NCBI GenBank assembly: GCA_964534625.1
Contig: CAZHRF010000031.1
Location: forward strand, 1 to 38,253
From: an uncultured archaeon
Lineage (GTDB): Archaea; Asgardarchaeota; Heimdallarchaeia; Heimdallarchaeales; Heimdallarchaeaceae
Direction: 5' to 3'
Length of the DNA stretch: 38,253 nucleotides
The notes below the pieces were generated by a model. The model was given only the letters and a program-made list of their open reading frames with translations, was not told the DNA's origin and ran no database searches. Both the position numbers and the translations under genes were made by a program. This document shows positions 13,014-21,387 of this stretch, in pieces; the stretch's first letter is position 1; every line of letters begins with the position of its first letter.

Positions 13014-13226
13014 ACATTAAAAAACGATAAGGTCATACGTATCTACCTAAGTAAGGGTATTGAGGACTTCCTATGTAGAGTTGTTACGTTGTGTACACTA
13101 GAACTATGTACTGTCGGGGCGATAGGAACTATAGACGACGCTTGTGGAGAAGAGGTCAGCCCTCATTTTGAGGTAACTTCGTTGAAGCAAGAAACCATCT
13201 GGCTTTAGGCAGCAATGGTAGTTCAT
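13014..13226 (+). mobile_element. Non-autonomous IS200/IS605 relic (omega-RNA region + right end)
   Basis: ACTGTCGGGGCGATAGGAAC...ACGCTTGTGGAGA...CTTCGTTGAAGCAAGAAACCATCTGGCTTTAGGCAGCAATGGTAGTTCAT parallels the tnpB 3'/right-end sequence at 2391-2548. ATAAGGTCATACGTATCTAC resembles a degenerate TnpB N-terminal (Y-x-x-R-I-Y-P) coding segment. The left boundary is uncertain. Confidence 0.75.
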
Positions 13227-14680
13227 TAAGAAATAATAGCAGTTCTAAATTTATCTAATACCAGCTCTAATTTTATTTTTGTTTTAGATGGTGCATATCT
13301 AAGAACAACCCAAAGAGTAATTAAAAAGGTTATAACAATCAATAAACTGATAAAACCTAATGGGTGTTTAAGGAGCAAGAGGAAATATATTGTAGCACAA
13401 AAAAGCTGTAACAAGGTACTCATGAACCCTAATTTCCAAAAACTCTTAATGGATATTGGTCTTTTATTCTTTTTAGCGAGTTGCACAACAAGGATATTAT
13501 CACCTAGAGGCGTCAGATTGTCTCCCCAGTTGGCACCAATTGAAAGACTGTAAAAATAGTGATTCCTATTTGTAGTTAAACCCGTAGTTATTATGCCAAC
13601 AATGGGGATCAAGACTTGGGTAATGGGAATGTTATCAATAAGCGAGCTGAGTATAGCAGAAAACCATAGGATTAATAAAATCTGAAGTATTGGAGAGTTT
13701 GTACCAAGTTTATTGAAACTTGCTCCTAGAAATTTTATTATTCCAACTAGCTCCATTCCACCTGCCATAACAAATATGCCAAGTAGATAAAAAAGCAATT
13801 CATAATCGAATTTTTTCATTATTTCTGCTGCATCCATACCACTAAAACTGCTTATTATTGTTAGTACCATAGCAATAATTAGGGCTATAATATCGGGAGG
13901 CAATATGTTAGGCGGAACGAGTAGAAAGGAGAGCATTAAAATCCCGAACGATACTATTGTTGAATAGAACACTCGCCTATTTTGGATTACGTTCCAGGGA
14001 TTAAATTCAGCTAAAGTCTCAACCAGCCTTTTTTCAGGTTCTACCAGATGTTTGTCATATAAAAACAAATCAAATAATATTGTTATGGTGGCGGCAACAA
14101 TAGAAAATAAGCCCACATTTAGGAAGTATTGCTTAAATGTGATTTCAGCATAGGTATTTATCAATATATTTGGAATTGAGCTGATCGAGAAAATTGTACC
14201 GCCAAGGTTTACAAGAACAGCTTGAGTCAAAACATATGGTTTGGGATCTAAATCAAGCATCCTACTAGTTGTAATTGTTAATGGGATAAGAATCATAACA
14301 GTAAGAATATTATTTACAATAGCTGAAAAAAATACTGAAAGAACAGCAAGAATAAACATCAAGTTTTTTGGTTTACCTTTAGATATTTTAATAGCGTATA
14401 TTGCTACGAATTGAAATGTGCCCACTTCATCAGATATTTGCACTATAAACATTATCCCAAAAATTAATAGAAGCGAATGAAAATTAACGAACCCATCCTC
14501 CGTTGTTCCAAATAGCAACTCTATCATTACACTAAATTCATTTCCTTCTATAAAGGTGAGAACCAAATAGGTGATTAAAGCCCCACTTAATGCAACAATA
14601 GCTCTGTTTAATTTCTCTGTTAGTATTAAAAGTACTGTAAAGATAAAAACAAAAGAAATTATAATGGCACTAAATATAAT
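13226..14680 (-). CDS. ArsB/NhaD (IT superfamily, CitMHS/P-protein-like) transporter, copy 3; ATT start inferred
   Basis: Paralog of 16654-18117 and 19918-21387 (FHSLLLIFGIM, SSIPNILI, FDYELLFYLLGIF, SSLIDNIP, GANWGDNLTPLGDN). The frame stays open 38 codons upstream of the track's TTG at 14566, to an ATT that aligns with Met1 of the paralogs and is preceded by GAGGTGA. Confidence 0.85.
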   Translation of the reverse strand: MIFSAIIISFVFIFTVLLILTEKLNRAIVALSGALITYLVLTFIEGNEFSVMIELLFGTTEDGFVNFHSLLLIFGIMFIVQISDEVGTFQFVAIYAIKISKGKPKNLMFILAVLSVFFSAIVNNILTVMILIPLTITTSRMLDLDPKPYVLTQAVLVNLGGTIFSISSIPNILINTYAEITFKQYFLNVGLFSIVAATITILFDLFLYDKHLVEPEKRLVETLAEFNPWNVIQNRRVFYSTIVSFGILMLSFLLVPPNILPPDIIALIIAMVLTIISSFSGMDAAEIMKKFDYELLFYLLGIFVMAGGMELVGIIKFLGASFNKLGTNSPILQILLILWFSAILSSLIDNIPITQVLIPIVGIITTGLTTNRNHYFYSLSIGANWGDNLTPLGDNILVVQLAKKNKRPISIKSFWKLGFMSTLLQLFCATIYFLLLLKHPLGFISLLIVITFLITLWVVLRYAPSKTKIKLELVLDKFRTAIIS

Positions 14681-19921: not shown

Positions 19922-21387
19922 TTTTTCACCTTACTATGAAGAATAATACTTCTAAAGTTTTCTATTAACTGATTTGTCATACTTTGTATCTTAGACGTAC
20001 TATATTTATTGAGTATAATAAATATTGTCAGTACTGTCAAAATTATTAATACCATTGTAACCCCCATTAATGGTTTAAGCACCAATAAGAGATAGACAGT
20101 CGCACAAGTTAACTGTATAATAGTGGCCACGAATCCTAATTTCCAGAAGTCCATGACAGCTATTGGTCTTTTATTCTTTTTAGCTAATTGTATAACTAGA
20201 ATATTATCGCCTAATGGCGTTAGGTTGTCTCCCCAATTTGCTCCGATAGCTAAACTATAAAAATATTGGTGTGATGAGAGAATTGATCCTTGAGCCATTA
20301 TAGCAACTATAGGTATCAAAACTTGTGTCATCGGCACATTGTCTAGCAATGAACTTGCTACAGCAGAGAACCATAGGAGGGCTACCACTTGAAATATTGG
20401 TGCTCCGGCGCCTATTCCCCTGAATGCTATCCCTATAGTTTCAATCAAACCTATCTTTTCTAGACCTCCCGCTATGACGAATATACCTAAAAGATAGAAA
20501 AGCAATTCATAATCAAATTTTTTTATTATTTCACCTGCATCTAATCCTTCTATAGTGCTTATTATCGTTAATACCATAGCAATTATCAAACAGATCATTG
20601 ATGGAGGGATAATATCGGATGGTACAATTATAAAAGCTAACATCAATAGGATTATTGCACCAAGTGAAGTGTAAAACAGCCGTCTATTTTGCACTGCGTT
20701 CCAAGGGTTGAATTCATCTAGGTTGGCTACCAATTTAGGTTCTGGTTCAATTAGTTCTTTTTTATACATAAAAATAAAGAAGAGGATGGTTATACCAACT
20801 GTTACAATTGAAAATAACCCTACATTGATAAAGAAATCAGCAAAGGAAATATCGGCATATGTGCTAATCAAAATATTTGGGATCGAGCTGATAACGAATA
20901 GTGTTCCTCCATTGTTTACCAATATTGCTTGTGTTAAAATATAGGGCGTCGGATCCAAATCTAACATTCTGCTTATTGTTATGGTTAGTGGTATTAAAAC
21001 CATCACGGTTAAAATGTTGTTTATGATTGCAGAGAATATTACAGAAAGAAAACAAAGTATTGTCATTAATGCTATTGATTTTCCTCTCGACATTTTTATT
21101 GCATAAATGGCAACGAACTGGACAGTACCTGCCTCTTCAGCTACCTGCACTATAAACATAATGCCCAATATTAGTACTAAAGAATGGAAGTTAACGAAAC
21201 CATCAACAGTTGTTCCAAAAAGTAAATCTATCATTACTTGGAATTCTTTCCCCTCTATGAAAGTAAGAACAAGATAAGTTATGAGGGCGCCAGACATTGT
21301 TACAATCGCTCGGTTGAGTTTTTCTGTTATAATTAAAACAACCGATACTATAAACACAATGCTGAGAATAATTACACTCACTGCCAT
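19918..21387 (-). CDS. ArsB/NhaD (IT superfamily, CitMHS/P-protein-like) transporter, copy 1
   Basis: TEKLNRA, SAIINNIL, NNGGTLFVISSIPNILI, FDYELLFYLLGIFVIAGGLEKIG, SSLLDNVP, GANWGDNLTPLGDN. Confidence 0.9.
   Translation of the reverse strand: MAVSVIILSIVFIVSVVLIITEKLNRAIVTMSGALITYLVLTFIEGKEFQVMIDLLFGTTVDGFVNFHSLVLILGIMFIVQVAEEAGTVQFVAIYAIKMSRGKSIALMTILCFLSVIFSAIINNILTVMVLIPLTITISRMLDLDPTPYILTQAILVNNGGTLFVISSIPNILISTYADISFADFFINVGLFSIVTVGITILFFIFMYKKELIEPEPKLVANLDEFNPWNAVQNRRLFYTSLGAIILLMLAFIIVPSDIIPPSMICLIIAMVLTIISTIEGLDAGEIIKKFDYELLFYLLGIFVIAGGLEKIGLIETIGIAFRGIGAGAPIFQVVALLWFSAVASSLLDNVPMTQVLIPIVAIMAQGSILSSHQYFYSLAIGANWGDNLTPLGDNILVIQLAKKNKRPIAVMDFWKLGFVATIIQLTCATVYLLLVLKPLMGVTMVLIILTVLTIFIILNKYSTSKIQSMTNQLIENFRSIILHSKVKK

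Follow-up and report, generated by a model that had tools for sequence, protein, structure and literature searches.

Introduction

In the GlnK-AmtB and SbtB-SbtA systems, the gene of a soluble regulator lies next to that of its membrane transporter. Here, a gene pair that may work in a comparable way is described from a 38,253-nucleotide stretch of DNA (the window) of an uncultured archaeon of the Heimdallarchaeaceae (assembly GCA_964534625.1, contig CAZHRF010000031.1, positions 1 to 38,253). The window carries a five-gene array in which putative ion carriers alternate with partner proteins that are predicted to begin with a roadblock domain (the head) and to continue as a helical tail. The conserved pair of carrier and head is the finding, and its tandem copies in the window offer a natural test of cognate pairing.

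GlnK and SbtB are small soluble regulators of the PII type, which bind and valve their transporters (bioRxiv 10.1101/2023.08.10.552651). The arsenite-type carrier ArsB can take the ATPase ArsA as an optional large soluble partner (PMC10372470), and the N-terminal plug of the transporter SLC38A9 contacts Rag GTPases (PMC13358448). Roadblock proteins of Asgard archaea are classed with the eukaryote-like regulators of GTPases; their partners are hard to assign, and gene order is seldom of help (PMC10933270).

The locus described here differs in that one Asgard roadblock subfamily has a near-invariant genomic partner, and this partner is a membrane carrier. If the two proteins bind, the roadblock fold would serve as a direct transporter subunit, a role not found in the literature searched, and the pair would provide a concrete test of how roadblock domains reached membranes before eukaryotes arose. 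A preliminary description of this DNA regarded the module as undescribed, and no description of the pair was found in the literature searched, in which subscription papers are thinly covered.

Linkage of carrier and head across Asgard archaea

The array consists of the following features.

19918..21387, minus strand: carrier 1 (T1), 489 residues, ion-transporter-superfamily (ArsB/CitMHS-like) by sequence
18263..19921, minus strand: partner 1 (P1), 552 residues, predicted roadblock head and segmented helical tail; its start overlaps the T1 stop (ATGA)
19532..19921, minus strand: head of P1 (residues 1-130) with a predicted roadblock fold, in the order helix, two strands, helix, three strands, helix
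18266..19531, minus strand: helical tail of P1, about 420 residues, acidic
16654..18117, minus strand: carrier 2 (T2), 487 residues
14996..16648, minus strand: partner 2 (P2), 550 residues, the faster-evolving copy
13226..14677, minus strand: carrier 3 (T3), 483 residues from a probable ATA start, with no partner gene after it

In a survey of 400 Asgard genomes, 118 strong head matches were found in 112 genomes of the Heimdall, Hod, Loki and Hel lineages. By comparison of coordinates, 105 of them lie directly behind a carrier gene and four directly before one. Of the remaining nine, six follow directly on a carrier fragment cut off by a contig break, two are at contig edges, and a single copy, whose match is interrupted by a stop, lacks a carrier. 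The head therefore adjoins a carrier in 115 of 116 informative cases, and the linkage proposed from the window alone holds across Asgard archaea. Gaps between the two genes are mostly 1-20 nucleotides (range -29 to 89). The linkage persists at about 30-37% head identity, survives a reversal of gene order and crosses orders, and the pair has been duplicated as a unit in two genomes, that of the window (G000) and G129. Among twenty ordinary roadblocks, retrieved as weak matches of the same profile, none lies beside a carrier, nor does a roadblock adjoin any of 20 distant carrier paralogues. By gene context, this roadblock subfamily is dedicated to this carrier clade.

Viewed from the carrier side, 95 of the 97 top-scoring copies have a head within 2.5 kb, the two exceptions being contig breaks; 12 of 16 copies in the next band have one, and most deeper members do not. 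The head thus depends more on the presence of the carrier than the carrier on that of the head. The pair is patchily distributed: neither gene occurs in two closed genomes of the window's family, and no match was obtained in 89 genomes from three further families. Named relatives within the window's own family are Heimdallarchaeota such as AB_125, which places the window in the Heimdall group of Asgard archaea. Named homologues all come from Asgard archaea, a genome-by-genome profile search not having been extended to other phyla. A correlation between carrier and head distances (r 0.77) was not counted, because kinship alone produces it. The smallest version of the pair, a 130-residue head with a 482-residue carrier in the closed 6.04-Mb genome G137, should be easy to express.

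Within the window, all five genes are present on the minus strand in the order T1-P1-T2-P2-T3, as first described, and both coupled junctions were confirmed: the ATGA overlap of T1 and P1 at 19918-19921, and a Shine-Dalgarno-like AGGTGA (16659-16654) that overlaps the T2 stop. Another AGGTGA, at 19931-19926 inside the 3' end of the T1 gene, precedes the P1 start. For P2, the start was placed at ATG 16648 (giving 550 residues) rather than at the called GTG 16657.

The roadblock head

The structural search suggested in the preliminary description supports a roadblock-type N-terminal domain. In the AlphaFold model of the P1 head (predicted local distance difference test score, pLDDT, 67), a helix, two strands, a helix, three strands and a helix follow one another. 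Its best Foldseek match is MglB (E-value 3e-6), and the VIA matches are Rag C-terminal domains, Roadblock/LC7, an MK-D1 roadblock and MglB (Z about 10, root-mean-square deviation about 3, 105-119 aligned residues); LAMTOR is also among the best structural matches. Longin and profilin score lower (Z about 7.5) than the roadblock-type folds, which fill all the top Foldseek and VIA rows. A family profile of 53 sequences reaches MK-D1 Roadblock3 (9jue) with an E-value of 0.007.

Against the Pfam roadblock family PF03259 (cut-off 23 bits), the heads of the window gave no match and 10 of the 53 homologues matched weakly (best E-value 5e-4); a roadblock search of the window's own genome listed six other roadblocks, with P1 and P2 not among them. 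Single-sequence head searches of solved structures and genome contigs returned nothing useful, while profiles and predicted folds succeeded. Because it misses the Pfam cut-off, the head, which is by its predicted model a full roadblock fold, is placed in a divergent subfamily. It has the same five-strand sheet and three helices, in the same order, as MglB, Roadblock/LC7 (PF03259) and the solved Asgard roadblocks 9jue, 9jq8, 7f8m and 7yh1, but differs from known roadblocks in its 10-16% identity to them, its own invariant motifs (P14, H18, F22, P43, G46 and G88) and, often, its helical tail. Its gene is tied to a carrier gene, whereas MglB-type regulators have an adjacent GTPase gene (mglBA).

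The carrier

Over their membrane domain, T1-T3 belong to the Pfam families CitMHS (PF03600; 154-167 bits against a cut-off of 31.9, E-value 7e-49 for T1) and ArsB (PF02040; 52-62 bits against 22.2, E-value 7e-14 for T1). The narrower NCBIfam cut-offs were missed by far for ArsB (112 against 457 bits and 88 against 415 bits), MamN (102 against 500 bits) and DASS (TIGR00785; 64 against 199 bits). ArsB 10tp is the nearest solved chain, and a likeness to the P-protein (OCA2) is presumed. By sequence, the carrier is thus a secondary ion carrier of the ion-transporter superfamily in an ArsB/CitMHS-like clade; from its solved relatives, a dimeric elevator mechanism would be expected.

The hairpin-tip asparagines N124 and N350, which are common to these relatives, align with those of NaCT and VcINDY and are 90-100% conserved, but the flanking Ser/Thr residues are replaced, with the motifs NNI and DNV/DNI in place of the carboxylate-binding Ser-Asn-Thr of DASS carriers. 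D292, D387 and D394 are invariant in the clade. These features suggest a working, ion-coupled carrier that does not look transport-dead; tentatively, its most likely substrate is an inorganic cation or a proton-coupled small solute involved in ion or osmotic balance, and not a DASS-type carboxylate. Compared with their ArsB, CitMHS, DASS and MamN relatives, the carriers have an acidic C-terminal broken-helix motif and a C-terminal extension of about 45 residues (an extra hydrophobic helix and a basic helix), and no ars genes were seen nearby. In a quick tree with some long rows of unsure placement, the roadblock-linked carriers form one branch (65 rows, support 99).

The earlier view that carriers of this superfamily normally work without a large soluble partner is not supported, since ArsB pairs with ArsA (PMC10372470) and 12 of 20 distant (sister) Asgard paralogues adjoin a soluble gene. 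The latter genes encode 320-390 residues (loci L185, L186, L187, L189-L192, L195, L197, L199, L200 and L203), and four of ten neighbouring open reading frames (ORFs) scanned beside distant paralogues matched Usp, one of them above the cut-off. They possibly represent a second carrier-partner module. At locus L207 (4430-4948), the gene after a near-clade carrier that lacks a roadblock looks Usp-like by eye. These neighbours suggest that a cytoplasmic subunit is common among such carriers and that, in one clade, a roadblock fills this place.

Predicted complex and proposed role

When T1 was modelled with two heads, the complex scored 0.47, while the best of three controls scored 0.00; the runs shared at least 81% of contacts, and the carrier pLDDT was at least 82. 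In calibration, 58 of 80 solved pairs and 2 of 110 mismatched pairs attained the mark used for complexes, but those that did so with a score of 0.60 or less were both mismatches and only seven of the solved pairs; the T1-head job differs from the calibration. In the T1 plus two-head prediction, only the carrier was scored and no interface was returned. The carrier-partner complex proposed in the preliminary description is accordingly retained as a predicted carrier-head contact with weak support.

Taken together, we consider it somewhat more probable than its opposite that the partner serves an ion carrier as a dedicated regulatory subunit on its cytoplasmic side, in the manner of GlnK-AmtB or SbtB-SbtA. 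Judging from the junctions, translational coupling would supply the partner along with the carrier. In the roadblock fold, dimers form through the sheet edge and the second helix; the head, probably dimeric like other full roadblocks, would dock on the carrier's cytoplasmic face and there gate, stabilise or place the carrier, a role that GlnK plays for AmtB and SbtB plays for SbtA. The tail may be an accessory grown by internal repetition in some lineages, which probably oligomerises or spaces the complex. The likeness to GlnK and SbtB would be functional only, since the partner has a roadblock fold, with no known nucleotide site, rather than a PII fold and the carrier fold differs; compared with ArsA, the partner is without an ATPase domain.

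Several observations weigh against a regulatory subunit. Related genomes among those surveyed are not independent samples. The dependence of the two genes is one-sided: four carriers at 550-630 bits and most weaker members have no nearby roadblock, and T3 has no partner. Several roadblock-less carriers also bear the C-terminal extension and the acidic motif, both of which were for that reason rejected as a docking site. Finally, the ion-related neighbours CorA and MscS, whose presence in 18 and 13 of 40 non-Heimdall loci of 7-16 kb speaks in favour of the proposal, come mostly from one family and occur within 3 kb in only 5 and 2 of 33 loci, and CorA was not found in the window's genome with the query used.

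Gene neighbourhood and possible co-regulation

Neighbouring genes bear on whether the two genes might simply be kept together for one stress or ion-homeostasis response, without contact between their products. This is the least improbable of the alternatives, although we regard it as unlikely. It would accommodate the carriers of the clade that lack a roadblock and the other stress genes at Lokiarchaeia loci, which often hold CorA, MscS, Hsp20 and a ribbon-helix-helix-like regulator and which hint, mainly in one family, at ion or osmotic stress. However, these stress genes vary from locus to locus, whereas carrier and head stay together in several orders; the overlapping or near-overlapping junctions, the occurrence of both gene orders and the duplication as a unit likewise weigh against shared regulation alone. 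At L122:6055-8977, CorA, a carrier and a head-only roadblock lie in one tight same-strand run, a possible three-gene operon.

The GTPase question

The structural neighbours of the head (MglB, LAMTOR and Rag C-terminal domains) raise the question of a relay in which a solute is sensed by the carrier and the roadblock dimer bound to it serves as a GTPase-activating protein, an exchange factor or a platform for a small GTPase encoded elsewhere, by analogy with SLC38A9-Rag-Ragulator. The preliminary description had proposed a relay to a GTPase and, for modelling, had named the one at 37445. Across families, the pair has no conserved GTPase neighbour, nor is there adjacency of the mglBA type; the gene at 37445 lies 16 kb away and belongs to a set of 24 small-GTPase ORFs in the 3.37-Mb genome, and as the chance of finding one within 16 kb is estimated at about a quarter, it was rejected as a third member. 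Since Asgard GTPases and roadblocks are seldom found in operons together (PMC10933270), a missing neighbour does not exclude a distant partner, and the 24 ORFs leave room for one. In several Hodarchaeales-type loci, an Arf-like gene lies divergently upstream, but it is limited to them and short in some (127-153 residues). A shared fold proves no function, and a carrier that keeps both hairpin asparagines does not have the appearance of a sensor that has lost transport. Such a relay is therefore rated as improbable, a little below co-regulation.

SLC38A9 has a transporter fold different from that of these carriers, and its system involves Rag GTPases, whereas the Asgard pair is known here without one. 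The SLC38A9-Ragulator analogy drawn previously is apt insofar as a transporter is found with roadblock-containing proteins, but it is loose, because the plug of SLC38A9 contacts Rag GTPases (PMC13358448). A prokaryotic sensing chain of transporter, roadblock and GTPase in the closest relatives of eukaryotes, in which the roadblock dimer would read the carrier's transport state and pass it to a GTPase and the Heimdall tail would have been lengthened by repeats, is rated as more doubtful still.

The helical tail

According to the predicted model, the P1 tail consists of long helices that are interrupted around residues 250, 337, 418 and 501; together with a stretch of low confidence around residue 165, this gives about five segments of roughly 84 residues. 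Autocorrelation peaks at lags of 86 and 168. Relatedness is clear between segments 3 and 5 (z 4.4) and marginal between 3 and 4 and between 4 and 5, and the other segment pairs are no more alike than random tail windows. A short-tail profile tiles the long tail, partly as an effect of composition. Growth of the tail by internal duplication thus appears likely but is only partly demonstrated.

Tail length varies among distinct partners: about 0 residues in some 10, about 80 in 41, 120-180 in 5 and 420-440 in 24. The long tail (about 430 residues) is seen only in the Heimdall family of this window, and head-only partners of about 130-140 residues occupy the same position elsewhere, so the reading of the rod of about 430 residues as a core element is not supported. 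The conserved unit is carrier plus head, and the tail is lineage-variable. The tail is also less conserved than the head (38% against 70% identity between P1 and P2), and a structure search with the full-length partner model gave nothing informative for it. At L043:8577-10289 (genome G024, Heimdall), the partner is split into frames of 411 and 146 residues, by a real break or an assembly error.

Least probable of all is a scaffold in which the head is only a clamp and the long tail is the functional part, tying the carrier to a cytoskeletal or membrane structure or gathering it there. In its favour are the fixed tail length of about 430 residues throughout the Heimdall family of the window, the regular helix breaks, the purifying selection and a separate coiled-coil family near short-tailed Lokiarchaeia pairs. 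On the other side, some 10 distinct partners, that of G137 among them, have no tail, and in 41 it is about 80 residues long; its conservation is much lower than that of the head, and no terminal domain could be recognised in it. The coiled-coil family itself, of about 218 residues, unannotated and often multi-copy, was noted at L175:6892-7545, L132, L136, L165 and others.

Origin and integrity of the five-gene array

An assembly artefact was rejected: the interval 13120-21700 is spanned by single contigs at flat depth in four sequencing runs of one study, possibly the window's own source data, and a sister species, from a separate public run, has the same five-gene array on three tiling contigs at about 86-88% DNA identity. 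The carriers share 59-66% identity (66% for T1 and T2) and the partners 45%; at the DNA level, the repeat comprises the carrier and the partner head (69% identity). In a quick tree, T1-T3 form their own clade (SH-aLRT support 99), in which T3 is the first to split off; P1 and P2 group as sister sequences; and each of the 24 other module-bearing genomes of the family has one pair only. The array is a genus-level duplication, and a local triplication is ordinary in itself. T3 would have split off first, after which the carrier-partner unit would have doubled and copy 2 diverged faster, with branches of 0.53 against 0.24 for the carrier and 0.51 against 0.04 for the head (P2 against P1).

All five genes are under purifying selection, as measured by the ratio of nonsynonymous to synonymous substitution rates (dN/dS) against the sister species: 0.09 for T1, 0.06 for T2 and 0.11 for T3 (0.06-0.11 for the carriers), and 0.21-0.38 for the partners (P2 0.29-0.38). 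Of the claim that the duplications are old and retained, paralogy, divergence and retention under selection are upheld, but "old" must be qualified to genus level, given the separate clade of T1-T3 and the 24 single-pair relatives.

T3 is 88% identical to its sister-species orthologue, and a pseudogene was rejected on the basis of its dN/dS. Its frame is open for 37 codons 5' of the called TTG, up to an in-frame stop within GAGGTGA, and this stretch has no in-frame ATG, GTG or TTG. The most likely start is the non-canonical ATA at 14677, downstream of the Shine-Dalgarno-like GAGGTGA at 14690-14684, because the sister species keeps the ATA and not the preceding ATT; a start at the ATT is disfavoured, AGT standing there in the sister. 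The lack of a partner for T3 is not unusual, since extra carrier copies beside one roadblock recur at L080, L086, L123, G174, G202 and G234; T3 may share a partner or enter mixed carrier dimers.

A non-coding element at 13000-13225, with at least 20 genome copies at 74-89% identity, abuts the T3 stop, and a shorter related element end lies between P2 and T3 at about 14884-14950. Presumably the former resembles an IS200/IS605-type end. The sister species lacks it, and its alignment breaks at the second element. As the sister has neither the element nor a third partner, the idea that a mobile-element end at 13225 ousted a third partner was rejected. Promoter and terminator scans gave chance level only, an Rfam search gave no match, and atlas feature hits stayed below 0.9 and serve as leads only.

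Other genes of the window

Adjacent to the array, 12642-13013 holds a 123-residue ORF without a family match, most of the stretch being absent in the sister species. At 36773-37978, the gene of a 225-residue protein, which bears a Cys/His motif in its N-terminal part and matched no NCBIfam family, overlaps a small GTPase gene of the Ras family tail to tail. The stretches 5651-6877 and 31288-32415 each encode a multi-pass membrane protein whose C-terminal domain is soluble, and 23726-25543 encodes a 605-residue acidic protein with a DUF11-type repeat.

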